Positions 1 to 61,091 of a stretch of DNA of 64,000 bases are shown piece after piece. Within the stretch, counting starts at the first letter, position 1. Each line of letters opens with the position of its first letter. The DNA comes from an uncultured Pseudomonadales bacterium (GTDB lineage: Bacteria; Patescibacteriota; Microgenomatia; UBA1400; CAYXSR01), in the NCBI GenBank assembly GCA_964467735.1, contig CAYXSR010000003.1, positions 1,078 to 65,077 on the forward strand. Reading direction: 5' to 3'. A model generated the notes under the pieces. It saw nothing but the letters and a program-made list of their open reading frames with translations. It had not been told where the DNA came from and did not search any database. The position numbers and the translations under genes are program-made.

Positions 1-1
1 T

Positions 2-484
2 GTTATAGGAGATGGTATAAATACGATTAAAAAACTTATTGATCGATTAAATAATAAGAAAAACGTCAGAAATGAACAAATCGGAATTGCTACTTTTAGC
101 CCAGTAATTATTGATGATAGTTTAAGACAAACTCTTGAAAAACAAAACCTAAGGTTAAATTCTGTTCCTTCAAGAGATCAAAAAGTTAATTTGTTAGAAA
201 CTGCCAATCGAGCCTCCGGAGGTTTTACTTATGTTATAAATAATTGGAATGAGGTTGTTCATCCTGAGATTTTAGAAACTATGATCGATGCGACCAAAGC
301 GCTGGCTTTAAAGTTCGCCGCCATTGATGTTGTTTTGAAAAGTTTAGAAATGCCGCTTGGAAAAAAGAACGGTAAGATAATTGAAATCAATTCATCTCCG
401 GGAATTAATATGTTTCACTATCCGGATTCTGGCAAACCACAATTTGTTGCCAAAAAAATAATCAGTTACATCGTCAAAAATTAA
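2..484 (+). CDS. ATP-grasp family ligase, C-terminal portion (5' end lies upstream of the window)
   Basis: Open frame runs from window position 2 (VIGDGINTIKKLIDRLNN...) to the stop at 484. The GDG...TIK motif and the C-terminal '...IEINSSPG' resemble the ATP-binding/C-terminal subdomains of RimK/cyanophycin-synthetase-type ATP-grasp enzymes. Convergent with the next ATP-grasp gene. Confidence 0.45.
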   Translation, partial: VIGDGINTIKKLIDRLNNKKNVRNEQIGIATFSPVIIDDSLRQTLEKQNLRLNSVPSRDQKVNLLETANRASGGFTYVINNWNEVVHPEILETMIDATKALALKFAAIDVVLKSLEMPLGKKNGKIIEINSSPGINMFHYPDSGKPQFVAKKIISYIVKN

Positions 485-511
485 AATTCTTAGATTTCTA
501 CGAATGAAGGA

Positions 512-1966
512 TTAAATTCTTCTCTTTTTGATCTTTCTTAATCCAAACTCTTTATAAACTAGTTTAATAATTTTTTTAACAGATGGTGCCAGTTTTGTAC
601 TATCCTTCTTATCTAATACTCGTTTTTTGAAAACTAACTTACCAATTCTTAAAATTGGCTTTACTACTTGACCTTTTTGTGGCAAACCATCAGTTACTAG
701 AAGTTCATTTTCCAAATCATGAATATCAAAAGTGGTAAAACCAGGACGAATAAAATTAATTTTATTTTTATCAAATCGATAGATGCCTGGTCTTACATCT
801 TTGGTAACTAACTGATAATCATGGGTTAAATTATTGAGAACCAAATGGCTTCCTTGCTTTGGTCTTTTATAAAGATTATCGATTGTTTTAAAATCCATCT
901 GATAGTTAAGTTTTAAAAGTTCTAATAGGTGAAAAACGTCAAAAGGTGGCTCTTCTTGTTCCATTTGCAACATTGAATAAATTGGAAAAGCGCCAGTATA
1001 ACGCGGATTACATTCACAAGGATAAACTTCTTCAGTTTTCTTATCAACCAATAAATCAATTCCAAAAATGCCTCGATAACTGTGTTTCCACATATATTCA
1101 CCCACTTTTTGAGCAATCAATTCTGCTTGTTTTTGAACTTTTTCAGAATAAACTTTAAAACTCCAATCATGACCACAAAACAAACCACTACCTTTGTCTA
1201 GATTTACAATTGTTGGTTGATCTAAAATTTGTGTTTGAACCGGTCCAGTTAGAATTCCAAAACGAGTAACACAACCAGTAATACTTGGCGAAAAAGCATC
1301 AATGTATTTGGTAACAATCACATGACGCAAATTAAATTGAGAAGACCAAGTAGCAACTTTTTCTTTAAATTTATTAAAATCAGTTATCTTTTTGACAAAC
1401 ACTAAAGAGTACCCTCCTCCTTTCGTAAGCTCTGGCAGAATCAACACTACTTTTTTCCATTTTTTTAAAAAGATTGCTAATTTTTGCTTTGTCAATTCAG
1501 ATATTTTTAATTTCTCTCCAGGAGCAACTTTCACTTTTACCTTCTTAAGTAAAGATCGAAAAAAATCTTTGTTTTCATATGGATCTCTTATTGATGCTCG
1601 ATTAGCAACAATATGCCAGCCAAACTTATCACAAACTTTCTCAATATTCTCTGTTGAGCGATATAAAACTAAATAGGGTTTTGTAGCTAAAGAATTTAGA
1701 TATTCCTGCACTCTAGGATTTTTGACAATTGTCAACGTATTATATTTACCTGCTTTCTCTCCTCTTTTAGTAAAGTTCCTTTCTACCGAAAGAGTTTTCA
1801 TTTTTTGAGCAATTAAATCATTTTCCGCGGCATCCTTCATTCCAATTAACTGATAATCTTTTTTTATTAACCCCGGAACAACTCGATGAAAAGCATTAAT
1901 ATCTAAACCAATTAAAGGCTTTTTAAACTTCAATAATGGAGAAAAGTAATCAGTTTTCATTTTCAA
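512..1966 (-). CDS. ATP-grasp domain carboxylate-amine ligase (484 aa)
   Basis: Full-length ORF. Central and C-terminal ATP-grasp signatures (…GGGYSLVFVKK…, …GIFGIDLLVD…EVYPCECNPR). 17-bp overlap with the upstream ATP-grasp/protease gene, so it sits in the same operon. Confidence 0.6.
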   Translation of the reverse strand: MKMKTDYFSPLLKFKKPLIGLDINAFHRVVPGLIKKDYQLIGMKDAAENDLIAQKMKTLSVERNFTKRGEKAGKYNTLTIVKNPRVQEYLNSLATKPYLVLYRSTENIEKVCDKFGWHIVANRASIRDPYENKDFFRSLLKKVKVKVAPGEKLKISELTKQKLAIFLKKWKKVVLILPELTKGGGYSLVFVKKITDFNKFKEKVATWSSQFNLRHVIVTKYIDAFSPSITGCVTRFGILTGPVQTQILDQPTIVNLDKGSGLFCGHDWSFKVYSEKVQKQAELIAQKVGEYMWKHSYRGIFGIDLLVDKKTEEVYPCECNPRYTGAFPIYSMLQMEQEEPPFDVFHLLELLKLNYQMDFKTIDNLYKRPKQGSHLVLNNLTHDYQLVTKDVRPGIYRFDKNKINFIRPGFTTFDIHDLENELLVTDGLPQKGQVVKPILRIGKLVFKKRVLDKKDSTKLAPSVKKIIKLVYKEFGLRKIKKRRI

Positions 1967-3260
1967 TATTGATCATAAAACCTTTTAGGTCTCGACGGCC
2001 AATAATCATTGGTCTTTTTAATTTTGAGCGGTCAGAAATGTTGGCTACTGTTTTAATTTTTCTGTCTTTTAACCAAAAAACTAATTCTACTAATGGCCTT
2101 CTTTCTCTTCCTAAAGCGCTTCGATAATATTTTTCCAGCAAGACATTTTCCGGATTTAAAAGTCCTAATTGTTCAGCTAACTTTTCATCGATTGATGTCC
2201 GGTAAGCACCAGTGTCAATTTTTGCCTTAACAGGGACTCTTTCTCCTAAAAATGTTCTTACTTCTATTGTTTCAAAAACATCAACGGTTCTCTTACCAGT
2301 TCCAATGTCTCTTAATTTCGGATTGGCAAATAATTCTTTAGAGATTTTTATTCCTTTTTCAGCTGATTCTACTTTTAATCCTTCTATTCTTAGTAAACGA
2401 CGTCTTAAGCCAGCTCGGTTAGCTAATTGAATTTTTAGACCTGGTTGAGCATTCAACTCTAAAACCTTAGGAAATGTTTTTCCGGGTTTTTTTAAAGATG
2501 GCTGAAGAGTAATATCAGCTCTCATAAACCCCAATTTCGGAATCGCAATTTGACAATTAACTGCCAGCTTTAAAACCTCGTCCCACTCGGGAATTTTAAT
2601 TCCTGATAATTTCCTTCTTGTTCCGGGGAAAAACTTTATTGGATCTGTCCATTTAATTGCATAAGTTGTAATTCCGGTTGCCATATCAATTCCACAAGCA
2701 ATTGCCCCTTGGAACATATTGGCTCGGCCGCCAGATTCTTTTGTTGGCAGTCTAAGGTAAGCCATCACTGGCACTCGATTAAAAACCAAAACCCCAATAT
2801 CTGGAGTTCCTCCCCAACAAACTTTTTTAAAAGCAGGGTGAATTCTTATTCTTTCTTCAACAAAAGCAATATCGGGTTTGTTTTCCATAGAAAACCGACC
2901 CTCTAAGATGTCTTGAATAAGCAGCTTAAAATCACCAATTGTTTTTGTTTCCCCTGTAGTTGTAACCCATTCTCCAGCATATTTACCATGTTTAGCAATT
3001 ACTAATATTCCTTCTCCCCCTAAAGAGTTATCTGGTTTTATAACAAAACTCTCTGGGAGTTTTTTTATAAAATCAAACTTATCAATTTCTTCAACTTTTC
3101 TAAAAACTCGATAAAGCTTTGGAATAGGCAATTTTGCTTTTCTTAAGGCTGATTTTGTCAATAATTTATGATTAGCAATTTTTTTTCCGGAGACTCTATT
3201 ATATCGAGAAAGGAAAAGAGTATTGCGGGCATTCATGCCCAAAATGTCTCGAATTTTCAT
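1950..3260 (-). CDS. alpha-L-glutamate-ligase-like (RimK-related) ATP-grasp enzyme fused to a C-terminal retropepsin-like 'ATP-dependent Zn protease' domain
   Basis: N-terminus 'ILGMNARNTLFLSRYN' and the body match the RimK-related alpha-L-glutamate ligase-like family. The C-terminal ~120 aa ('VPVKAKIDTGAYRTSID…') matches the retropepsin-like Zn_protease domain that is normally a separate neighbouring gene. 4-bp overlap with the upstream 7TM gene. Confidence 0.6.
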   Translation of the reverse strand: MKIRDILGMNARNTLFLSRYNRVSGKKIANHKLLTKSALRKAKLPIPKLYRVFRKVEEIDKFDFIKKLPESFVIKPDNSLGGEGILVIAKHGKYAGEWVTTTGETKTIGDFKLLIQDILEGRFSMENKPDIAFVEERIRIHPAFKKVCWGGTPDIGVLVFNRVPVMAYLRLPTKESGGRANMFQGAIACGIDMATGITTYAIKWTDPIKFFPGTRRKLSGIKIPEWDEVLKLAVNCQIAIPKLGFMRADITLQPSLKKPGKTFPKVLELNAQPGLKIQLANRAGLRRRLLRIEGLKVESAEKGIKISKELFANPKLRDIGTGKRTVDVFETIEVRTFLGERVPVKAKIDTGAYRTSIDEKLAEQLGLLNPENVLLEKYYRSALGRERRPLVELVFWLKDRKIKTVANISDRSKLKRPMIIGRRDLKGFMINIENEN

Positions 3261-4204
3261 TTTAGAAGACTCTTAAATTTCTTATATTCTAATAGTCTTA
3301 AACCAGCATACTTCCCCACAAAAATATCAAAAACAGCTATTCCAATAATACTTGCTTCTGGATAAAGCAGAACAAATTTCTGTAAAAATTCTAGCTGTAA
3401 AAATAAAGAACAAAATAAGGCAATTACTAAAGTTTCAAAAGTCATCTTCACCGCCTGTTTCATTGACATACCAATATGAATACTAATAAAGTTTTCTGCT
3501 AAAAGAATCAAAATTAAAATTGGAAAAATTGAAAGAGTCATAATTGTCGTAAAATTTAAAACCGGAGCGATAAACAAAACTGCTAAAACACCCAAAGACA
3601 CAAACCACAAAAGTAAGGCCATTCTTGGTAAATATTGAATCTTTATCTTTCGCAAAACTATTCTTGCCCCTGTTGCCACAATGATAATGGTTAAAAAAAG
3701 AAGCAGACCTTCAAAAACACCTGTGGAGACAAAGACAACAGAAAGAACTACGGGCAGAAAAATACCAAAACCTTCCATTCCTATTAAATGTCTCAAACCA
3801 GCAATAATCGCCGCCACTAAAGGAAATAAAAGAATTAAAACCACTGTGTTTGCAGGAACTCCTCTTTTAATAATAAAGCGGATTGCGTGCTGAAGAGGAT
3901 TAGTAAATGTTAATGGCTTTAAGGGATGTTCTGCCAAATGTCTTTCTAATTTATCTTTAATCTCTGGAGTTGGTTCAGTAATATCTGGTTTTTTTTCAAC
4001 TACTCTTTCGACTATTGGTTGAGCTGATTCGCTTGCCTGGGCAGTTGAAGTTGACTCTAAACTTTCATCTACATTTTCAGTGGTAATATTGGAAACCACT
4101 GTTTGTGCCTCTACAAGCTGAGGCTTAAAATTAAAGAAAAATAGAAATACAATTAGAAATAGAAAAATCTTCTTCATCTTCTCTATATTATAACAAAGAA
4201 GCAT
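3257..4204 (-). CDS. polytopic (about 7 TM) membrane protein with N-terminal signal/secreted region; 7TM partner of the ligase/protease system
   Basis: Signal-like N-terminus, a Ser/Thr/Glu-rich extracytoplasmic segment, then about 7 hydrophobic helices. The position corresponds to the 7TM component of the 7TM-transglutaminase / ATP-grasp / retropepsin triads, but no transglutaminase domain is recognisable here. Confidence 0.45.
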   Translation of the reverse strand: MLLCYNIEKMKKIFLFLIVFLFFFNFKPQLVEAQTVVSNITTENVDESLESTSTAQASESAQPIVERVVEKKPDITEPTPEIKDKLERHLAEHPLKPLTFTNPLQHAIRFIIKRGVPANTVVLILLFPLVAAIIAGLRHLIGMEGFGIFLPVVLSVVFVSTGVFEGLLLFLTIIIVATGARIVLRKIKIQYLPRMALLLWFVSLGVLAVLFIAPVLNFTTIMTLSIFPILILILLAENFISIHIGMSMKQAVKMTFETLVIALFCSLFLQLEFLQKFVLLYPEASIIGIAVFDIFVGKYAGLRLLEYKKFKSLLK

Positions 4205-4228: not shown

Positions 4229-5203
4229 TTACTGACAACCGCCAGTATCTCCAGTTGCAGCTTGAGAAGATAAAGTTGTTTTGCATTCTTTTGGTGGATT
4301 ATCAAAAGAATTACAAATAGCGCTCTTCAAGGCCTCTGGTGTTCGCAGCTGAGTAGCATTAAAGTCTGTCTCATTAATCCTTAATCCTTTATTATAGGCT
4401 TCATTGGGTGGATACAAGACGCCATTAATAAAGATTGTTGGTGAGCCGCTAACTCCACCCATCTGCTCAGCAGCCGCTATATCAGTTCTTAACAAATCAG
4501 TTCCCTGGTTATTAGCACATTCCTCAATCTTGGCGACATCAAATCCTGCTTTTTCTGCCCATTGCTGCCAACACTCACCAATATTATCTAAAGTACAGTT
4601 AGTATTTAAATCATTTACAAATTGCCACCATTTAGTTTTATCCTCAGCCATGTTAAAAGCACAAATTTCGCGGACATCTTGTTTTAACTCCTCTTCTCCG
4701 TGAAGAGAATCGAATGTGCCGATTTCTAAAGGATCACATTCTCCAGTAATACATTCATCAACTGTGTTATAAGGAAAATATTGTTTACAAGTTTCCATGT
4801 CTGGCAATTGACCCTGCTTTATTGCATCTTCACAGCGTTTTTTATTCTCATCATTAAAAAGCCGCTGAGGACAACTTGTTTGGCAAGCATCTTTTGTTTC
4901 TTGAGTAATCTCAGAAACAATATAGCGTGGTTGCCATTCGACTTTATCGCCTAATAAATCAGCGACTGGCTTCAACCCTGTCTCAGCTTGATTACCATAA
5001 GGACAATAACTCATAACAAAAAACTCAATTTTAGGTTTTTTATTCTTAGAAGCTTCAAAAATAGCCGGATCTTCTAATTTTACTTGAGCTCCTTGGACAT
5101 TTTTATTGGTTTTTTCTGCCTGAATTTTATTAAATAAATTTCCCGCTCCAAAAGCTACTATCACTAATAATCCTATTAAAATAGTGTTTGTTTTTAGCTT
5201 CAT
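4229..5203 (-). CDS. secreted/anchored cysteine-rich thioredoxin-fold (DsbA-like) protein
   Basis: The likely start is the internal Met (MKLKTNTILIGLLVIVAF… signal/anchor); the 5245 start in the ORF track would overlap the ferredoxin. A thioredoxin-like 'FFVMSYCPYG' segment is followed by more than 14 further Cys residues and a 'GSPTIFINGV' DsbA-like C-terminus. Confidence 0.5.
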   Translation of the reverse strand: MKLKTNTILIGLLVIVAFGAGNLFNKIQAEKTNKNVQGAQVKLEDPAIFEASKNKKPKIEFFVMSYCPYGNQAETGLKPVADLLGDKVEWQPRYIVSEITQETKDACQTSCPQRLFNDENKKRCEDAIKQGQLPDMETCKQYFPYNTVDECITGECDPLEIGTFDSLHGEEELKQDVREICAFNMAEDKTKWWQFVNDLNTNCTLDNIGECWQQWAEKAGFDVAKIEECANNQGTDLLRTDIAAAEQMGGVSGSPTIFINGVLYPPNEAYNKGLRINETDFNATQLRTPEALKSAICNSFDNPPKECKTTLSSQAATGDTGGCQ

Positions 5204-5403
5204 TTTTGCTCCATTTCCTGCCAGGAAATTGCTTGAACCGGACAACCATCTATGGCTGATTGAATTGTTTGTTCATCATCTCCTGTTGGATTAACAACAA
5301 CACTTTTACCATTATCATTCAATTTAAAAGTCTTCCCGGCTATCCCCACACAAGCGCTACAACCAATACATTTATTCGCATCAACAATTGGGTTTTTTGC
5401 CAT
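5200..5403 (-). CDS. small ferredoxin (single 4Fe-4S/3Fe-4S cluster type)
   Basis: 67 aa with CIGCSACVGIAG…CP, the classic Cx2Cx2C…CP motif of small mono-cluster ferredoxins. Confidence 0.75.
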   Translation of the reverse strand: MAKNPIVDANKCIGCSACVGIAGKTFKLNDNGKSVVVNPTGDDEQTIQSAIDGCPVQAISWQEMEQK

Positions 5404-5476
5404 TTTTTTCTCCTTTTTAAATTTGGTTTTTAAATATAGAGGAAGTATACCAGAATCTTTTTCTGATTGCTATATT

Positions 5477-6454
5477 CTAAATTCCTCGCTGTTGAGGAGC
5501 CATTTCTTTTCTTAAATAAACATAAGCTGATCGGCTAGCCAACGCTCCCATTCCACAAGCAGTTATCATTTGAGCAAAACCATAAATAAAATCAGTACAA
5601 TCACCAGCTGCAAAAATTCCTGAGATGTTCGTATTCATCCACTTATCTACTTTAATAAACCCCTGTTCGTTCATTTCTATCCCCATTTCTTGCGCCAAAT
5701 TTGTTCCAGGAACGCCACCTATCTCAATAAATACTCCATCCACAATAAGTTCTTTCTGATTTTTGTAAGGCTTATCTAAAATTATTTGAGTAACCTTCTG
5801 GCCATCCCCTTTAATTTCAACAACATTAGTATCATAAATTGTTTCTCCTTTGCCTGATTTCTCGATATTTTTCCATTCATTTATCCAAGCTGGTTCAGCC
5901 CGTAATTGATCTTTACGATAAATAATGTAAACTTTTTTAGCATATTCTGAGGCATGAACTGCTCCAGAAACTGCTCCATCTGAACCGCCAACTAAGACAA
6001 CAATCTTGTCTTTATAGAAAGGAGCATCACAAGTAGTACAGTAGGAAACTCCTTTTCCTAAATATTCATCTTCGCCATTAATTCCTAAGGTTCGTCTTTC
6101 TGTCCCACTGCTAATAATTAGAGATTTCGCCTGATAAGTTTGTCCTGAAAGAGTATAAACAACGAAGTCTTGTTCATTATTTTTAGTAATTTTTTGAACC
6201 GGATCATAGACAACTGACGTTCCCAAACCCTTAGCATGTTCTTCAATTTTCGTCATTAAATCAAGTCCAGGAATACTCCTGAAACCGGGGTAATTTTCTA
6301 CTTTATGAGCTAAACCAATTGTTCCCCCAATTTTTTTACCTAAAACTAGGTTGGTCAAATTATAACGGCTGGCATATATTGAGGCAGTCAAGCCAGCCGG
6401 ACCGGAACCGATAATAATTAAATCATAAACCATTTTTCGAGTCCCAATAAGCAA
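5477..6454 (-). CDS. trxB: thioredoxin reductase (NADPH)
   Basis: FAD motif IIIGSGPAGLTA, redox-active CTTCD disulfide motif, second NAD(P)H Rossmann motif VVLVGGSDGA; about 325 aa. Confidence 0.9.
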   Translation of the reverse strand: MLIGTRKMVYDLIIIGSGPAGLTASIYASRYNLTNLVLGKKIGGTIGLAHKVENYPGFRSIPGLDLMTKIEEHAKGLGTSVVYDPVQKITKNNEQDFVVYTLSGQTYQAKSLIISSGTERRTLGINGEDEYLGKGVSYCTTCDAPFYKDKIVVLVGGSDGAVSGAVHASEYAKKVYIIYRKDQLRAEPAWINEWKNIEKSGKGETIYDTNVVEIKGDGQKVTQIILDKPYKNQKELIVDGVFIEIGGVPGTNLAQEMGIEMNEQGFIKVDKWMNTNISGIFAAGDCTDFIYGFAQMITACGMGALASRSAYVYLRKEMAPQQRGI

Positions 6455-6476
6455 TCAAGTACAAGCTTGAGATAAT

Positions 6477-6800
6477 TTATTTATTATACTTTTTTAAAGT
6501 CTCTATTATTTCTTCTTTTGGTCTTGCTCCCACTAATCTTTCCATTTCTTGACCATTTTTAAATACCACCATTGTGGGTACACTCATAATACCATACTTA
6601 CTGGCTGTTCCAGCAGCCTTATCGACATCGACTTTAGCAATTTTATATTTATTACCAACTTCTCCGGCAACTTCTTCGATTATTGGTCCTAGCATTCGAC
6701 AAGGAGGACACCAAGTCGCCCAAAAATCAACTAATACTACGCCTTTCTCGTCCAAGACTTCTTTTTGAAACTTATCATCAGTTAAATGTAAAACTGTCAT
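6477..6800 (-). CDS. trxA: thioredoxin (active site WCPPC)
   Basis: 107 aa with 'VLVDFWATWCPPCRMLGP…MSVPT…F.NG' thioredoxin fold; active site CPPC rather than the canonical CGPC. Confidence 0.9.
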   Translation of the reverse strand: MTVLHLTDDKFQKEVLDEKGVVLVDFWATWCPPCRMLGPIIEEVAGEVGNKYKIAKVDVDKAAGTASKYGIMSVPTMVVFKNGQEMERLVGARPKEEIIETLKKYNK

Positions 6801-6808
6801 TTTTCTCC

Positions 6809-7045
6809 TTAGAAATTAGAAATCTTTTTTAACATTTCTCTTACTTTTTCTTCTTTATTTTCTCTTAAACAAGAAACGGTTTCCTCAGTTAAAATTTCTC
6901 TAGCTAAACTAGCCAAAGCACTTCTTACCGCACTTATTTGCTGAACAACTTCTAAACATTTCCTTCTCTCTTTATACATTCTTTCTATACCATCAAGTTG
7001 TCCCTTTATTCTAGCTATTCTGGTTATTATTTTATCTTCTGGCAT
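6809..7045 (-). CDS. CsoR/RcnR-family metal/persulfide-sensing transcriptional repressor (Cys-x-Cys type, CstR-like)
   Basis: 78 aa all-helical protein with the CsoR/DUF156 pattern. The sensing positions are Cys30 and Cys59 with Glu, not His, at the 'Y' position, as in the persulfide sensor CstR rather than the Cu sensor CsoR. Confidence 0.75.
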   Translation of the reverse strand: MPEDKIITRIARIKGQLDGIERMYKERRKCLEVVQQISAVRSALASLAREILTEETVSCLRENKEEKVREMLKKISNF

Positions 7046-7068
7046 CTTTAAATTGCTTCTTCCTTATC

Positions 7069-7110
7069 TATACTCCCACCCAGTATATTCATCTGTTCGT
7101 CTTTTGTCAA
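7069..7110 (-). promoter_or_regulatory. sigma70-like promoter (TTGACA-17-TATACT) with an overlapping ATACT-GGGTGGG-AGTAT inverted-repeat operator, upstream of the csoR-like gene
   Basis: On the minus strand: TTGACAaaagacgaacagatgaaTATACTgggtgggAGTATA. The -35 is 7105-7110, the -10 is 7082-7087 and the palindrome is 7069-7087. CsoR-family operators are G/C-tract-centred inverted repeats of this type. Confidence 0.45.
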
Positions 7111-8216
7111 GTATTTAATAAAAATCTAACTTTTCTGGACCTAATAATTTTTGATTTTTCTTTTACTTTCTCCCAGTTTTTTTCTCCTTCTTTTTTGGCT
7201 GCCATTGTGCCTTGTCGCGGAGAATAGCGGAAAACATGTGTCTTTCTAAATCTCTTGCCAAGTAATTTTTTAAATTTTTTTAAAGTAATCATCGTTTCTT
7301 CAAATTCTTCTTGGGTTTCTCCTGGAAAACCAACAATGATATCGGTCGAAAAAGAAAAATTAGGAATAATTTTTTTCAAAATTTGAAGTTTTCTAAAAAA
7401 GTCTTCAACGCCATATTTTCTTCTCATTCTTGCTAAAACATTGTTACAGCCAGATTGAAGAGGAATATGAAAATGACTAGTCAGTCTAGGTTGGATTTTT
7501 TTATCTTCGTATAATTTTAAAAATTCCCTATTAAAAGCATTGATATTAATTGAACCAAAAGATATTTTGTCTATTTTTGTGAATTTTAAAATATCTTTAA
7601 CTAGTTTAGCTAAACTAGGCTGATAATCACTTACTTCTACTCCTGTTAAAATTATTTCTTTTATCCCCTCTTTTATTTGTATATTAACTTCTTTAATAAT
7701 TTCCTTAATAGGTCTTGAAATTGAACGACCCCGCAAAAAGGGCACGATACAATAAGTACAAAAATTATTGCAACCTTCTTGAATTTTAATTAATGCTTTT
7801 CCTGAACTGGCATATTTGTCTTTATAAAAATTAGCCAACAAGGGTTTTTTAAAACAGCCTAATTTCTTTTTCAAAATTTCTGGAAGCTTCATTTTATTCT
7901 TATTCTCTATCAATAAATCAATTGAGGAAGAAAATTTTCGAGGAGATTTTTTAAATAGCTTTTCTGCCCAACAGCCAGAAACAATTAAAAAACAATCAGG
8001 ATTCTCTCTTTTAATTTTCCTGATCATTTGCCGTACCTCTTTATCAGCCTTTTGAGTCACACTACAGCTGTTAATAATAACAATATCTGCTATTGATAAA
8101 CTATTAACAACCTTTAATCCGGGAAACCGAGAACATAAAGCTTCTCCCATCATTCGGCTCTCTGCTTGGTTTAAACGACAACCAAAAGTTATTAATTTCA
8201 AATTGAACCTAACCAT
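7107..8216 (-). CDS. radical-SAM methylthiotransferase (MiaB/MtaB/RimO family, no obvious TRAM domain)
   Basis: N-terminal MTTase Cys triad (FGCRLN…NSCSV…SGCWAE) plus radical-SAM CNNFCTYC motif. Confidence 0.8.
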   Translation of the reverse strand: MVRFNLKLITFGCRLNQAESRMMGEALCSRFPGLKVVNSLSIADIVIINSCSVTQKADKEVRQMIRKIKRENPDCFLIVSGCWAEKLFKKSPRKFSSSIDLLIENKNKMKLPEILKKKLGCFKKPLLANFYKDKYASSGKALIKIQEGCNNFCTYCIVPFLRGRSISRPIKEIIKEVNIQIKEGIKEIILTGVEVSDYQPSLAKLVKDILKFTKIDKISFGSININAFNREFLKLYEDKKIQPRLTSHFHIPLQSGCNNVLARMRRKYGVEDFFRKLQILKKIIPNFSFSTDIIVGFPGETQEEFEETMITLKKFKKLLGKRFRKTHVFRYSPRQGTMAAKKEGEKNWEKVKEKSKIIRSRKVRFLLNT

Positions 8217-8235: not shown

Positions 8236-8964
8236 TTATTTTTCAGCAACTAAAGTTCCAATCTGTGCTCCTCGAACAATTTCTGGAATCTTACCAATAT
8301 CTTTAACACTAAAAACAATAATTGGTTTTTTCTTTTTCCAACATAAAGCAAATGCCGTTGCATCCATTACTTCTAAATTTTTCTCAATTGCTTGTTTATA
8401 GGTTAATTTAGAAAAACGGGTAGCTTTTGGATTTTTCTGAGGATCTTCAGAATAAATACCATCTACATTTGTTGCTTTCAAAATAGCATCGCAATTAATT
8501 TCACAAGCCCTTAAAGCTGCTGCTGAATCAGTAGTGAAAAAAGGGCTTCCTGTTCCGCCAGCAAAAATAACAATTCTACCTTTTTCTAAATGACGAATGG
8601 CTTTCCTACGAATAAAAGGTTCAGCAATAGCTTTCATCTCTAAAGCAGTCATCATTCTGGTCGGCATTCCTAATCTCTCCAAGGCCTCCTGTAACGCCAG
8701 ACCATTAATTACTGTTCCTAACATCCCCATATAGTCAGCTACTGTTTCATCAACACTTCGTCCCTCTATTTCGCGACCGCGAAAAATGTTACCGGCGCCA
8801 ACCACAATCGCTAACTGAATAGAATTCTTCTCTTTTATTTTAATAATATTGTGGGCAATCTTTTCATAGGCAGAAAAGGAAATACCCCAACCGTCTTTCT
8901 TTCCAAAAAGTTCGCCGCCTAATTTTAAAATTACTCTTTTATATTTAAGTTTTGTATCAACCAT
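8236..8964 (-). CDS. pyrH: UMP kinase
   Basis: 'RVILKLGGELF' N-terminus and amino-acid-kinase fold signature throughout; 242 aa. Confidence 0.9.
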   Translation of the reverse strand: MVDTKLKYKRVILKLGGELFGKKDGWGISFSAYEKIAHNIIKIKEKNSIQLAIVVGAGNIFRGREIEGRSVDETVADYMGMLGTVINGLALQEALERLGMPTRMMTALEMKAIAEPFIRRKAIRHLEKGRIVIFAGGTGSPFFTTDSAAALRACEINCDAILKATNVDGIYSEDPQKNPKATRFSKLTYKQAIEKNLEVMDATAFALCWKKKKPIIVFSVKDIGKIPEIVRGAQIGTLVAEK

Positions 8965-9086
8965 ACTCCCCCTTCTTTATAAAAAGAACACCTAAAAGGT
9001 GCTCTTTTGAATTTCAAAATAATTTATAAAAATAGTCTTTGGGCTCAAAAAAAAATTCCTCATTTGTAAGATATTATACAAAAATA

Positions 9087-9818
9087 TTAATTTTTAGCAA
9101 ATTTTTTATTAATTAAAAAGAAAATGGAAAAAAATATCAGGACAAGACTTATCAATTGGTTAATCCTAAATTTGCCTACCAACCAGCTGTCAATCCGTAA
9201 AAATTCCAACCAAAAACGGCCTAAGCAATATAAAAAGAGATATAACAAAAATAGTTTTCCATTTTTAAGTTTATCCTTATTTTTTATTAAAATTAAAAAA
9301 ATAGCTAAATCCCAAAAACTCTCATATAAAAATAGAGGGTGAAATCTTGAGAAATTTTCATAGCCTGGAAGTCTGTTTTCAGGACTAATGAAAATACCCC
9401 AAGGAAGTTTAGTAGGTAAACCATATAATTCCTCGTTAAGGAAATTCCCCCAGCGACCAATTGCTTGAGCTAAAGGTAAGCTCAAACAGATAACGTCCAC
9501 CAATTTCAAAAAGTCTTTTCTTGTTAGTTTGGTAAACTTAGCAAATAAAAATAGACCTAATACTCCACCAACCAAGGCTCCAAAAATTCCAAGTCCTCCT
9601 TGCCAGATTAGAAATATCTCTCCAGGGTTTTGTTTGTAATATGGCCGGAAGCTAATCATATGGTATATTCGTGCTCCAATTATTCCGGGAATAACAATCC
9701 AGGGGAAAATATCAAAAACAGAGATTCCAATTTCAAAAGGCTTATTTTTTCTAAATTTTTCAACTACAAAAATTGCTATTAAAATTCCTAGAGCAATTAA
9801 AAAACCATAAAAATTCAC
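9087..9818 (-). CDS. lgt: prolipoprotein diacylglyceryl transferase
   Basis: Polytopic membrane protein with the Lgt signature region '…QAIGRWGNFLNEELYG…'. Confidence 0.85.
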   Translation of the reverse strand: MNFYGFLIALGILIAIFVVEKFRKNKPFEIGISVFDIFPWIVIPGIIGARIYHMISFRPYYKQNPGEIFLIWQGGLGIFGALVGGVLGLFLFAKFTKLTRKDFLKLVDVICLSLPLAQAIGRWGNFLNEELYGLPTKLPWGIFISPENRLPGYENFSRFHPLFLYESFWDLAIFLILIKNKDKLKNGKLFLLYLFLYCLGRFWLEFLRIDSWLVGKFRINQLISLVLIFFSIFFLINKKFAKN

Positions 9819-10696: not shown

Positions 10697-11606
10697 AAAC
10701 AGGGATTATATCATATTTCCCGTATTTCTCTATTAAAGCCTTAGTTTTTTTAATATTTTGTTTTTGAACTAACTGATTATTATTCTTAATATTTTTCTTA
10801 ATTAAGGCCGTCGGACCTCCAAAGTTTTTAGGAATAATTAAAATATCGCCTTCTAATACTTTCTTTTCTAACTGCTGATTTTCTCGTTCATTTCTTCCTA
10901 AAATAATCTGTGTTTTTCCTCGCCAAAAATGACGACCAATCCTTAAAAGTTCTATATCTTTCGGCTGACAATCTGGATTTTTCTTAAATAAATCAAGTAG
11001 CTTTTTAGAAAATCCTTTCTCTGTCAAAATACAGCCACCAGCTGGCTGAGGAAAAATTAATTTATATTTCTTAGCTAATTTAAGTTGTTCATATCTTCCC
11101 CTACCTTTTACGAAAAGAAGAAATTCTGACTTTACCCAACCTTTTTCTTCTGGAATTGTCTTTGGTAATAATTTTGCTGAAAGGGGCCTTAATAAAAGTT
11201 CTTTTAAACCAGATTTTTGGGCAATTAAAATCAACGCCTTTTTATTTTGAGAAAAAGGTCTTTCACCTAAAACTTCGCCGGTAGCGACAAAATCAAATCC
11301 TTTTTCTTCCATTACCTTTCTCGCTTTTTTAAGCATTAAAAGATGACAATCAATACATGGATTAGCGGCTGATCCTCTGCTAAACTTTGGTTTCTTAACA
11401 ATTTGAAGGTGCTCTTCAGAAATATCAATTATTCGACAAGGAATTTTTAGCTGTTGACAGGCTTGCTTACCTTTTCTTTCATTAAAAAAACAACTTTTAA
11501 AAACCAAACCAGTAACATCAATATCGCTTTCTTTTAAAAGTTTTGCGGCTAACATTGAATCTAAACCTCCGGAGATTAAAACAAGCGCTTTTCTTTCCAT
11601 CTTCAT
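10677..11606 (-). CDS. PP-loop superfamily ATP pyrophosphatase, ThiI/TtuA/MnmA-like tRNA thiolation enzyme
   Basis: N-terminal PP-loop 'ALVLISGGLDSMLAAKLL' (SGGxDS) and a downstream 'ATGEVLGERPFSQN' segment resembling the ThiI 'TGESLGQVASQT' region. Confidence 0.6.
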   Translation of the reverse strand: MKMERKALVLISGGLDSMLAAKLLKESDIDVTGLVFKSCFFNERKGKQACQQLKIPCRIIDISEEHLQIVKKPKFSRGSAANPCIDCHLLMLKKARKVMEEKGFDFVATGEVLGERPFSQNKKALILIAQKSGLKELLLRPLSAKLLPKTIPEEKGWVKSEFLLFVKGRGRYEQLKLAKKYKLIFPQPAGGCILTEKGFSKKLLDLFKKNPDCQPKDIELLRIGRHFWRGKTQIILGRNERENQQLEKKVLEGDILIIPKNFGGPTALIKKNIKNNNQLVQKQNIKKTKALIEKYGKYDIIPVYDIKFI

Positions 11607-11872
11607 CTAATAACTTTAAAATCTTTAAATCCTTCTGGTTTTTCTTCTTCAATCTTTACATCAGAGACTTGAGCTAATGGTGGGCCTTGCCAACACCATT
11701 CAACCATTTGATTCACTTGTTCTTCATTGCCTTCAAATACAGCTTCCACTCCGCCATTGTGGGCATTTCTTACCCAACCATTAATTCCTAATTTCTCAGC
11801 CTTATGCCGACAAAAAGCCCTAAAACCTACTCCTTGAACCCGACCAATTATAAAAACTTTAACTTTTTTCAT
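11603..11872 (-). CDS. acyP: acylphosphatase
   Basis: 'VFIIGRVQGVGFRAF…GINGWVRNAHNGGVEAVFEGNEEQV' are the two acylphosphatase signatures. The start is taken at the internal MKKVKV rather than the over-extended 11953 start. Confidence 0.8.
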   Translation of the reverse strand: MKKVKVFIIGRVQGVGFRAFCRHKAEKLGINGWVRNAHNGGVEAVFEGNEEQVNQMVEWCWQGPPLAQVSDVKIEEEKPEGFKDFKVIR

Positions 11873-12203
11873 TCTTTTTCTCCTTTTTAAGCTGTTGAAC
11901 TTTCCACATAAACAACCTTCCTTTACTTTTAACATTAGTGGCGTCTTTAACAAAATTTTTTGCCCGTTCCAAAATATCCCTTGGTAGCTCTTTGGCCATT
12001 TTAATAAAAAGACTAGCTCGCTTTTCCTCGTCTAACTCACAAGCCAAACGATAACCATAATCCTGAAATTCTCGAGTAATATATTTTTTCTTTGAATAAT
12101 CCCAGGATTTCAATATCTTACCTAAAGATTGCATGCCAGTGATCGTTTTTCTTTTAACCACTCCTCCCTCCAATCTTAATATCTTTTTTAGTATATGATA
12201 CAA
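11859..12203 (-). CDS. hypothetical protein
   Basis: 114 aa, Lys-rich, no recognisable motif; directly upstream of acyP on the same strand. Confidence 0.35.
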   Translation of the reverse strand: MYHILKKILRLEGGVVKRKTITGMQSLGKILKSWDYSKKKYITREFQDYGYRLACELDEEKRASLFIKMAKELPRDILERAKNFVKDATNVKSKGRLFMWKVQQLKKEKKNEKS

Positions 12204-12214
12204 TACTCACTTGT

Positions 12215-12775
12215 ATGATCAAAGCAATTAACTTAAATCGAGGTTCATTTCTAAATTACAAAAATCGTCCTTACGTTGTTACTGAACGAGAATTTTATTC
12301 TCCCGGCAAAGGTTCAGCAATTGTCCGACTAAAACTTAAAGATGTCAAAACTGGCGTGGTAAACAAAGTTGTTTTTAAGACTACTGAAATGGTTGAAGAA
12401 ATTAGTGTTGAACAACAAGAATTTCAATATCTTTATCAAGGTAATGGTGCTTTTTGTTTTATGAGTCCCCAGACGTTTGAACAAATAGAGATTCCTGAAG
12501 AATTAGTTATTGATGATAAATACTTTCTAAAAGAAGGTGAGACTTATAAGATCCTTTTTTATGAAGATAAACCAATAAAAATAAAACTCCCTTTAAAAAT
12601 GGAAATGGAAGTTACTGAAGCCGAAAATGCTGTTAAAGGCGACACCGTCACTGGAGCTACTAAAGAGGTTAAATTAGAGACTGGACTTGTTATAAAAGTA
12701 CCTCTTTTCATCAAAAAAGGCGAAAAAATTTTGGTTAATACTGAAAATAAAGAATACGTTGGCCGTTCTAATTAG
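12215..12775 (+). CDS. efp: elongation factor P
   Basis: 186 aa with 'YSPGKGSAIVRLKLKDVKTG' loop (the modifiable Lys is conserved) and three-domain EF-P length. Confidence 0.9.
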   Translation: MIKAINLNRGSFLNYKNRPYVVTEREFYSPGKGSAIVRLKLKDVKTGVVNKVVFKTTEMVEEISVEQQEFQYLYQGNGAFCFMSPQTFEQIEIPEELVIDDKYFLKEGETYKILFYEDKPIKIKLPLKMEMEVTEAENAVKGDTVTGATKEVKLETGLVIKVPLFIKKGEKILVNTENKEYVGRSN

Positions 12776-37437: not shown

Positions 37438-37510
37438 TGACAGGGGTGGGAGTTGAACCCACGACCGCCGGTTTATGAGTCCGGTGCTCTACCAACTGAG
37501 CTACCCTGCC
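37438..37510 (-). tRNA. tRNA-Met (anticodon CAT; elongator or Ile-lysidine type not distinguishable)
   Basis: Reverse complement GGCAGGGTAGCTCAGTTGGTAGAGCACCGGACTCATAAACCGGCGGTCGTGGGTTCAACTCCCACCCCTGTCA folds as a cloverleaf with a GGTTCAACTCC T-arm; CCA is not encoded. Confidence 0.85.
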
Positions 37511-58234: not shown

Positions 58235-58308
58235 GCCAATGTAGCTCAGTTGGTTAGAGCAGCTGTTTTGTAAACAGCAGGTCGTCGGTTCGAATCCGAC
58301 CGTTGGCT
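58235..58308 (+). tRNA. tRNA-Thr (anticodon TGT)
   Basis: GCCAATGTAGCTCAGTTGGTTAGAGCAGCTGTTTTGTAAACAGCAGGTCGTCGGTTCGAATCCGACCGTTGGCT folds as a cloverleaf with the 7-nt loop TTTGTAA and a GGTTCGAATCC T-arm. Confidence 0.85.
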
Positions 58309-58318
58309 CTTATAAAAT

Positions 58319-58402
58319 GCGTAGGTGGCGGAGCAGCAATCGCACCAGTCTGTAAAACTGGCGGTCTAACGGCCTTCGGGGGTGCAAGTCCCTCCCTACG
58401 CA
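58319..58402 (+). tRNA. tRNA-Tyr (anticodon GTA), class II with long variable arm; atypical T-loop
   Basis: Perfect 7-bp acceptor GCGTAGG/CCTACGC; 3-bp D-stem; anticodon arm CCAGT-CTGTAAA-ACTGG; variable hairpin GGTC-TAAC-GGCC. The T-arm is GGGGG-TGCAAGT-CCCTC (G at position 55). Confidence 0.6.
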
Positions 58403-60692: not shown

Positions 60693-60696
60693 ATTG

Positions 60697-61091
60697 TGGA
60701 GATGGGGAGAAATGAACTCCCGTCCGAAAAGGTTCTTTTTAAACTTCTACAAGCTTAGTCCGTTTTTTATCCTAAAGAGAGAAACGAACAACCCTTTAAC
60801 CTTCAGGAAATGGTCTTATGCTCCTTCTAAAGCCGACCAACTTTAGAATGATGCCCTGAGTGGGTTTTCACTCTAACTAATCCCCCAGGGAAGACGAGCT
60901 AGAATGCCAGCTTAGGCTGTAAAAGCTAAAGCCGGTTGGCCAAAAAGGGCTAGCTTAACGCTTTCCCAGACTTCGGCCAATTTGTCAGAAATTTTGCTGA
61001 CAGTTATGTTTTGATTCTGTTTAACTCCGATGAATCAACGGAGGCTTGCTGTTTTCAAAGAACAATCTTCCCGTCGAATCTATTCATCCCC
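60697..61091 (-). ncRNA. ssrA: tmRNA (ssrA)
   Basis: The minus-strand RNA starts GGGGAUGAAUAGAUUCGACGGG (consensus GGGGxUGxxxxxAUUCGACGGG) and ends …GGACGGGAGUUCAUUUCUCCCCAUCUCCA (T-arm plus 7-bp acceptor pairing with the 5' end). About 395 nt, GC-richer than the surroundings, lying 3 nt downstream of smpB. Confidence 0.8.

Follow-up and report, generated by a model that had tools for sequence, protein, structure and literature searches.

The first 4,204 positions of a 64-kb stretch of DNA from an uncultured bacterium (contig CAYXSR010000003.1; the whole stretch is referred to here as the window) encode a membrane-associated cluster of peptide ligases. We interpret it as a form of the Rlo/Rim ligase-peptidase systems found in Patescibacteria (candidate phyla radiation, CPR), in which an acidic peptide would be built stepwise by ATP-dependent ligases at the membrane and trimmed in cis by a peptidase. 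We assign this interpretation a probability of roughly 0.55. It is carried by the domain identities, the catalytic and poly-Glu-binding residues, the gene linkage and the gene fusions, all of which are observed. Four reading frames are present in positions 1-4204, where a preliminary description of the sequence had placed them (Table 1): minus-strand genes for a seven-transmembrane (7TM) protein, a ligase-protease fusion and a second ATP-grasp ligase, and, converging on these, a partial gene for a third ligase. The three ATP-grasp enzymes reported in that description, at 2-484, 512-1966 and 1950-3260, are all present as frames with ATP-grasp matches or fold. A triad of 7TM protein, ATP-grasp ligase and aspartyl protease was reportedly first predicted by Iyer et al. 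in 2009, and the earlier match of this locus to such a triad holds, as all three families are present and are those of the rlo operon of Pseudomonas aeruginosa.

In the rlo operon, rloA encodes a secreted retropepsin-like protease, rloB a 7TM protein that includes an inactive transglutaminase domain, and rloC a cytoplasmic ATP-grasp enzyme (Lormand et al., mBio 2025, PMC12239564). RloA proteins, for which crystal structures have been determined, form dimers, carry a DTGA active site and a basic channel for the substrate, and cleave stretches of at least eight Glu (PMC12239564). A triple rlo protease mutant dies in low-salt medium and shows biofilm, antibiotic (beta-lactam) and cell-shape defects; since deletion of rloB or rloC suppresses this mutant, there must be a product of RloB and RloC that has to be removed by the proteases (PMC12239564). 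RimB, which is cytoplasmic, cuts poly-Glu tails of at least eight Glu and stimulates RimK in its synthesis of poly-alpha-Glu (Little et al., JBC 2025, PMC11957791). In Pseudomonas fluorescens RimK and RimB act on ribosomal protein S6 (RpsF), and a natural RimB-RimK hybrid with an N-terminal protease (RimBK, Desulfotalea psychrophila DP2392) is proteolytically active (PMC11957791). The remark in the preliminary description that no member of these systems had been characterised is therefore outdated, as structures, cleavage, genetics and an active hybrid have all been reported.

The central protein of the window is the 436-residue fusion. Its N-terminal part matches PF14397 (ATPgrasp_ST; residues 3-300, E 2e-55, 188.3 bits against a cut-off of 31.4) and TIGR02291 ("alpha-L-glutamate ligase-like protein"; E 9e-73, 245 bits), and residues 1-313 are 36-40% identical to the ligase encoded next to RloB-type genes in Pseudomonas, Stutzerimonas and Legionella. 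Residues K75, D249, E268 and N270 are invariant among 16 fusion proteins of 57-78% identity. RimK models fit this domain poorly (TIGR00768, E 0.011, 15 bits against 143.4; PF08443, E 0.074, 13 bits against 21), and we class the ligase, on its profile matches, as RloC type and not RimK type. The C-terminal part, residues 342-433, is matched by PF05618 (a family now named RimB-like; E 1.9e-6), Asp_protease_2 (4e-4) and NCBIfam RloA3 (2.7e-8), and contains VKAKIDTGAYRTSID, the stretch quoted in the preliminary description. That description had read the gene as a RimK-related ligase with a retropepsin-like C-terminus and had proposed profile searches as a check; the profiles above bear it out. No exact database match to this 436-residue protein is on record.

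Alignment to proteobacterial RloA places K347-x-D349-T-G-A, R388 and R411 of the fusion protein opposite K46, D48, R114 and R137 of RloA, and K347, D349, R388 and R411 are invariant among the 16 fusion proteins. In RloA, K46, R114 and R137 bind poly-Glu, and the two arginines are essential for its cleavage (PMC12239564). Compared with RloA, the fused domain has no signal peptide, no Cys and hence no disulfide pair, and a flap that is shorter by about 25-30 residues; no hydrophobic segment was found anywhere in the fusion protein (highest 19-residue hydropathy value 1.11). Since it has none of these features and lies behind a soluble ATP-dependent ligase, the fused protease must, judging from its sequence, be cytoplasmic, like RimB.

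The 7TM protein matches PF14402 (7TM_transglut; E 3e-24, 86.3 bits against a cut-off of 25) but covers only positions 312-507 of the 508-position NCBIfam RloB profile. No inactive transglutaminase domain is present, and Pfam gives no match N-terminal of residue 113; the position which that domain has in proteobacterial RloB appears to be occupied by a short N-terminal region. About 50 acidic, Ser/Thr-rich residues of this region are disordered in the AlphaFold2 (AF2) model (predicted local distance difference test, pLDDT, below 50 for residues 29-65 and 68-73) and are followed by two short helices (residues 76-83 and 94-104). The region also contains an RGVPANT motif, with R100 and G106-T111 as conserved columns in an alignment of 52 sequences (alignment A2). 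In the same alignment, the membrane core contains two sets of invariant residues, R129-H130..G133..G136-x-G138-x-F140-x-P142 and Y182-x-P184-R185. They are predicted to lie on cytoplasmic loops, a placement that would suit ligase docking. The C-terminal tail is basic, and the distribution of charges agrees with the N-terminus being outside and the C-terminus inside. A locus from Peregrinibacteria (L037, 3264-4802) encodes a 7TM protein with a PKD domain on its N-terminus, where proteobacteria have the inactive transglutaminase; the outer module of the 7TM protein seems to be freely exchangeable.

In a species scan comprising one genome per species, full-length matches to the fusion protein (about 430-460 residues) were found in Microgenomates, Beckwithbacteria, Woesebacteria, Levybacteria and other Patescibacteria. 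Matches confined to the ligase part (residues 1-313, 36-40% identity) came from Pseudomonas, Stutzerimonas, Legionella, Methylococcales and other proteobacteria and correspond to rloC genes. The best 120 of 4235 homologues are all about 425-462 residues long, and most are recorded with both PF14397 and PF05618. The ligase-retropepsin fusion is thus the usual form in Patescibacteria and not, as the preliminary description had it, an addition of this locus.

Gene linkage is equally regular. In all 86 loci the gene directly upstream of the ligase is that of the 7TM protein, which has about 300 residues in fusion (CPR) loci as against about 520 in proteobacterial loci. In at least 35 of the 45 non-fusion (proteobacterial) loci the protease has a gene of its own, located ahead of the 7TM gene. 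At least one extra ATP-grasp gene is found downstream in 23 of the 35 non-redundant fusion loci with enough downstream sequence (24 if L024, identified by Pfam, is included), and in 18 of the 29 fusion loci of the unbiased species scan; within 5 kb downstream of the ligase gene the 45 non-fusion loci have no such gene, and no MATCAP peptidase gene either. Conservation of the neighborhood across related CPR genomes, which had been suggested earlier as a check, is thus observed. Ligases of the 482-residue type, to which the second ligase of the window belongs, come after the fusion gene in L001 and L005, which are close relatives, and in five loci of the species scan, and stay linked to the cluster at 33-35% identity in contigs with different surroundings. 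Other clades have one or two RimK-family ligases in place of the 482-residue and G-domain types. The extra ligases are best described as variable accessories of the system.

Several proteins join these enzymes in a single chain. P0406 (926 residues) consists of an RloC-type ligase, a retropepsin and a ligase of the 482-residue type; it is encoded at 5001-7781 of L090 and L091, contigs from two sources, in each case directly behind the 7TM gene. Downstream of it on both contigs are two more RimK-like genes and then a DUF3541 gene, so that in L090 four ATP-grasp domains and a DUF3541 gene stand behind one 7TM gene. In P0437 and P0399 the partner of the 482-residue type is a RimK-type ligase, in P0361 it is MATCAP, and in P0366 a 482-residue-type ligase is followed by a GNAT acetyltransferase. 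P0408 (retropepsin plus 482-residue type) was dropped as independent evidence, as its sequence begins at the edge of a contig and it is probably a P0406-like protein cut short. DUF3541 (PF12060) recurs in clusters of this kind, fused to a RimK-like domain at L024 9284-10852 and as a separate gene at L090 8672-9607.

Because gene order is conserved and single polypeptides join them, the three ligases appear to work together. It could be argued instead that the three ligase genes are adjacent by chance or local synteny, and that only the 7TM-fusion pair is a functional unit: extra ligases are absent from about a third of the fusion loci and vary in type between clades, the G-domain-like gene is convergent, and the redox genes upstream show many kilobases of shared order among close relatives anyway. 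We consider this extremely improbable, given that linkage is kept at 33-35% identity in different surroundings, that extra ligases occur in 23/35 fusion loci against 0/45 others, that the 926-residue polypeptide from assemblies of two sources joins both ligases and the protease, and that the window shows overlapping coding regions.

A second kind of peptidase is repeatedly associated with these loci. Proteins of the MATCAP family (PF08014; NCBIfam "QEGLA", TIGR02421) are encoded next to the fusion gene in L022, L036, L040 and L087. In proteins of about 800 residues from L037 (4811-7219), L038 (5944-8316) and L041 (7977-10355) a MATCAP domain is fused behind the ligase, and the retropepsin-like segment is recognisable but has DTT, NTA or NTT in place of the DTG motif; MATCAP has apparently replaced retropepsin in these proteins. 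That the swap goes together with retropepsin decay indicates that having a peptidase act with the ligase is a selected feature. In L046, from a metagenome-assembled genome (MAG) of Rubrobacteraceae, a retropepsin-like domain is fused to the predicted outer N-terminus of the 7TM protein (6775-7956), and behind the ligase gene there is a second, separate retropepsin copy (8847-9380), whose hydrophobic N-terminus suggests that it is secreted or membrane-anchored. The membrane side of trimming would therefore differ between lineages.

The second ligase of the window (482 or 484 residues, depending on its start) is barely recognised by Pfam, and its PRK06524 score is 139 bits against a cut-off of 684. 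Its predicted fold is that of a complete three-domain ATP-grasp enzyme (pLDDT 95), and the usual ATP-grasp Lys and the Asp/Glu/Asn metal-ligand positions are invariant in 62 relatives. All structural matches share 10-14% identity with it, and a sequence search of the PDB gave chance matches only. By these comparisons the protein does not appear to be orthologous to any named enzyme of the biotin-carboxylase, PurK and L-amino-acid-ligase group. A profile search of 1.84 billion representative proteins gave 714 clusters of its family at E ≤1e-30. A graspetide pathway, that is, a ribosomally synthesised and post-translationally modified peptide (RiPP) made by a ligase of the MdnC/MvdD type, was considered for this locus and rejected, as there is no room for a precursor gene and the ranking of folds does not fit.

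The convergent gene enters from the window edge and encodes only the C-terminal half of its protein; these 160 residues align to the cyanophycin synthetase profile, which has 871 positions, at positions 320-472 (E 6e-34). For the missing half we relied on the orthologue in L005, which is 76% identical and lies on a different contig. It is complete at 328 residues, covers positions 177-473 of the same profile (E 1e-68) and stops at the end of the G domain, with neither an N domain nor a Mur-ligase-like M domain. The best sequence relatives of the convergent ligase in the PDB are G domains of CphA1. The full-length orthologue also matches the Ngg model TIGR03103 (E 3e-31), and its scores are far below the equivalog cut-offs. 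The convergent position recurs in five loci from two clades (L004, L005, L009, L010 and L016), and in L036 and L040 the G-domain-like ligase is present as two or three tandem co-directional copies.

With a convergent gene closest to the cyanophycin synthetase G domain, the cluster might be thought to make a cytoplasmic storage polymer of the cyanophycin type, the more so as CphA1 likewise combines a polymerase with a hidden, built-in hydrolytic site that generates primers (PMC9262961). We find this very improbable. The 328-residue orthologue is without the N and M domains that add arginine, profile scores of 117-232 bits fall far short of cut-offs of 850-877 (232 against 877 for the orthologue), no cyanophycinase-like gene was seen, and the invariable membrane partner would have no role in a storage granule.

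The arrangement we favor, a ligase-peptidase system acting on an acidic peptide at the membrane, would work as follows. Without the ribosome, the RloC-type cytoplasmic ligase would lengthen a peptide by joining amino acids, glutamate being the most likely, to its C-terminal carboxylate; the acceptor may be a free peptide or a protein. The fused retropepsin-like domain would cut acidic stretches and so set chain length or make new primers, as RimB does for RimK, and this endopeptidase could be active as a pair of domains inside a ligase oligomer. The 482-residue ligase and the G-domain-like ligase may lengthen the same chain with more residues or with residues of another kind, or may make the primer. 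The 7TM protein would hold the ligase at the membrane via its conserved cytoplasmic loops and would probably pass the product outward. The order of steps and the export are inferred, as are the substrate and the acceptor.

Several observations weigh against this scheme. No RloC-type ligase with a product is on record, and glutamate is therefore extrapolated from RimK and from what RloA and RimB are specific for. The Pseudomonas protease is secreted and acts outside the cytoplasm whereas that of the window is cytoplasmic, and the two systems may therefore handle their product differently. Among open reading frames of at least 60 residues in the 64-kb window, none encodes a run of five or more acidic residues, and this search thus gave no candidate substrate. 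A transcript shared with the operon is impossible for the convergent ligase gene. With about a third of fusion loci having no extra ligase nearby, the additional ligases are not obligatory. In addition, the TIGR02291 score of 245 bits is below the curated value of 314.2, and PF05618 barely exceeds its cut-off (28.3 against 27).

Two further explanations bear on what the ligases act upon. The system might tail and trim the C-terminus of a specific protein, as RimK and RimB do for S6 or as in the tubulin tyrosine ligase/MATCAP cycle, with a regulatory role and with the 7TM protein as sensor, anchor or target. RimK and RimB do act on RpsF, the fused, cytoplasmic and Cys-free protease resembles RimB in location, and MATCAP carboxypeptidases repeatedly adjoin or fuse to the ligase. 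We nevertheless regard protein tailing as unlikely, although it is a serious competitor: the ligase is predicted to belong to the RloC type instead of the RimK type (E 0.011-0.07 with RimK models), RimK systems are not strictly paired with a membrane protein, no protein with an acidic tail was found as a candidate in the window, and clusters with three or four different ligases, like the fusion of a 482-residue ligase to GNAT, resemble small-peptide assembly.

Alternatively, the ligases could attach amino acids to envelope glycan or peptidoglycan precursors, the 7TM protein being a flippase or an anchor for a lipid-linked substrate. The name and origin of PF14397 ("sugar-transfer associated ATP-grasp") would agree with this, and the cell-shape, beta-lactam and hypo-osmotic phenotypes of Pseudomonas rlo mutants point to the envelope. 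In L087 and L089 a gene for a class A penicillin-binding protein is found at a distance of about 1.2 kb, but it is beyond a convergent tRNA-synthetase gene and occurs in these two related contigs only. The conserved cluster contains no glycosyltransferase, Mur-ligase or polyprenyl-related gene in any locus examined, and its recurring partners, retropepsin and MATCAP, are peptidases specific for peptide chains; envelope decoration is accordingly an improbable explanation in our view, and assembly and trimming of an acidic peptide is preferred.

The three minus-strand genes overlap at their starts and stops, which we read as the arrangement typical of co-translated genes. The 7TM and fusion genes share ATGA at 3257-3260, and the stop codon of the fusion gene lies inside the start of the second ligase gene. 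The preliminary description gave the latter overlap as 17 bp, at 1950-1966, which can be read directly from the sequence; it shrinks to 11 bp if ATG 1960 is the start. The same description placed the 7TM gene at 3257-4204 with a 4-bp overlap and a secreted N-terminal region. Family, overlap and the signal-peptide-like N-terminus all stand, but the database record of this protein (P0241, 306 residues) starts at ATG 4177. A gap of 51 bp separates ATG 4177 from the upstream DsbA-like gene, whose end has a terminator-like hairpin (4247-4230) preceding this gap. The only promoter hint is TGtTATAAT, inside the gap, since our promoter scan was at chance level overall (25 found, 23.8 expected) and does not list this site. 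These features hint that the three genes form their own transcription unit, with the 7TM start at 4177. At the other end, 27 bp separate the plus-strand stop at 484 from the stop of the operon.

Table 1. Features of the window: the ligase-peptidase cluster, its subdivisions, neighboring genes and RNA genes.
Feature	Position	Strand	Remarks
7TM membrane protein, RloB-type C-terminal module only	3257..4177	-	306 residues from ATG 4177; alternative in-frame ATG 4204
Signal-peptide-like N-terminus, MKKIFLFLIVFLFFFNFKPQLVEA, then Q	4106..4177	-	Hydropathy peak 2.09 at residues 4-22, then VEA-Q; putative cleavage site, from sequence
Extracytoplasmic N-terminal region (predicted)	3854..4105	-	From signal peptide and positive-inside rule
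Seven-helix membrane core	3308..3853	-	Hydropathy, loop charges, AF2 helices at residues 109-289
Ligase-retropepsin fusion gene, 436 residues	1950..3260	-	
RloC-type ATP-grasp ligase domain, residues 1 to about 300	2361..3260	-	PF14397, TIGR02291
Retropepsin-like (RimB/RloA-type) aspartic endopeptidase domain, residues about 325-436 and stop codon	1950..2288	-	PF05618, Asp_protease_2, RloA3
Catalytic-motif codons D349-T350-G351-A352	2205..2216	-	D349, G351 and A352 invariant, T350 nearly so, in 16 fusion proteins (57-78% identity)
Second ATP-grasp ligase, Patescibacteria family without a name	512..1966	-	484 residues from TTG 1966, 482 from ATG 1960
Convergent standalone ATP-grasp ligase, C-terminal 160 codons	2..484	+	Open frame entering from window edge
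Candidate extended -10 promoter element TGtTATAAT	4187..4195	-	Read from sequence; nine bases before ATG 4177; weak evidence
DsbA/VSR_TRX-like protein	4229-5245	-	14 Cys, hydrophobic N-terminus
Small ferredoxin	5200-5403	-	
Thioredoxin reductase	5477-6454	-	
Thioredoxin	6477-6800	-	
CsoR-type metal-sensing repressor	6809-7045	-	
tmRNA gene	60694-61091	-	Rfam, 127 bits
tRNA genes	37438-37510, 58235-58308, 58319-58402	-, +, +	Rfam

Directly upstream of the operon the window carries redox genes (4229-7045, minus strand); their order is shared with L001 and L005, and in L010 a DsbA-like gene abuts the 7TM gene. Rfam matches in the window are limited to one tmRNA gene and three tRNA genes. In some loci unrelated genes separate the fusion gene from the second ligase gene, namely a Fic-domain protein recognised by Pfam (L016, 2040-3074), two small genes (L009, 2034-2743) and a gene for a 353-residue protein (L011, 4744-5802). 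In L001, from Beckwithbacteria, the second ligase is followed by a 390-residue protein (10808-11977) and a 165-residue GNAT acetyltransferase (12006-12503), where the window has the convergent G-domain-like ligase. The 390-residue protein was rejected as a counterpart of the partial gene, as it is unrelated and has no family match. Many loci of the CPR architecture come from third-party-assembled (TPA_asm) MAGs titled "uncultured Pseudomonadales" or "Gammaproteobacteria" (L010, L013-L016, L018, L019, L021, L022, L024, L025, L027-L030, L039 and L040). Their proteins are 37-59% identical (best segment) to the window fusion protein over its full length, whereas named Pseudomonas genomes match it over the ligase part only (36-40%); the organism labels of these loci are probably unreliable.

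The system is very common in Patescibacteria, whose small genomes retain few biosynthetic pathways, and the retention of three or four ligases in such genomes suggests that the cluster is likely to matter for the envelope or lifestyle. The CPR variants can be regarded as natural experiments, in which the peptidase has been welded to the ligase, has sometimes been swapped for a C-terminal carboxypeptidase, and extra ligases and acetyltransferases have been attached; together these changes point to a peptide chain that is grown and trimmed at its C-terminus. One could go further and propose, tentatively and with considerable doubt, that Patescibacteria carry a membrane-coupled, ribosome-independent peptide assembly line. 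Ligases of the RloC, 482-residue, RimK and cyanophycin-G types would each add defined residues, retropepsin or MATCAP would edit the chain in cis, and the 7TM protein would export it, giving a defined acidic heteropeptide or a polyanionic surface polymer of the envelope or host-contact surface of these ultrasmall episymbionts. If true, this would also reveal the product of Pseudomonas Rlo. A widespread and compact CPR form could in any case help to find that product, and its fused enzymes would be convenient for biochemistry.

Among known systems, CphA1 is similar in that the product of the convergent gene corresponds to its G (ATP-grasp) domain, which extends the peptide backbone at the C-terminus, and in that its in-built primer-making hydrolytic site is a mechanistic parallel to the ligase-protease fusion. 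It differs in that the convergent ligase is a standalone protein of 328 residues without N and M domains. Eukaryotic enzymes of the MATCAP family remove the C-terminal residue of a protein that an ATP-grasp ligase adds, and the pairing of the tubulin tyrosine ligase/MATCAP cycle, ATP-grasp ligase with metallocarboxypeptidase, is matched by adjacent genes in L022, L036, L040 and L087 and by fusions in L037, L038, L041 and P0361. The window itself has no MATCAP gene, and the eukaryotic cycle concerns a single residue on a single protein. ATP-grasp enzymes also make small acidic peptides whose N-terminus is blocked, namely N-acetylglutaminylglutamine amide (Ngg) and N-acetyl-Asp-Glu (mammalian RIMKLA/B). 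The TIGR03103 match of the G-domain-like ligase and the presence of GNAT, adjacent in L001 or fused in P0366, recall such enzymes, whereas the window cluster has no GNAT gene and no amidotransferase partner was seen. The ATP-grasp protein CfmP of Klebsiella was rejected as a related system, as it belongs to a different (TupA-like) family. In the literature on the Pfam names or on CPR together with ATP-grasp we found no paper describing the CPR form, the domain architecture of which is already recorded in databases.

The closest relatives are the Rim and Rlo systems. As in RimK/RimB, a cytoplasmic retropepsin-like endopeptidase is physically coupled to an ATP-grasp enzyme of the alpha-L-glutamate-ligase type, although the domain order is the reverse of that in RimBK, with the protease of the window C-terminal instead of N-terminal. 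RimK systems, moreover, have no 7TM partner, their known target is ribosomal protein S6, and the window ligase is predicted to be of the RloC type. With Rlo the window operon shares the same three families (PF05618, PF14402 and PF14397/TIGR02291), a 7TM gene directly upstream of the ligase gene, a ligase domain 36-40% identical in sequence, and a protease which keeps DTGA and the poly-Glu-binding Lys and Arg residues. Unlike RloA, which is secreted and has a signal peptide, a disulfide pair and a longer flap, the protease is fused to the C-terminus of a cytoplasmic ligase; the 7TM protein has a short acidic disordered region instead of a transglutaminase-like domain; and CPR loci can have one to three extra ATP-grasp ligases and sometimes MATCAP. 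The window form therefore belongs to a known kind of system, Rlo/Rim, and is not a new category. Three defining features set it apart: its protease is located elsewhere, its 7TM protein has lost the transglutaminase domain, and ligases have been added. By its predicted features, it is Rim-like in the location of its protease and Rlo-type in its ligase and membrane partner.

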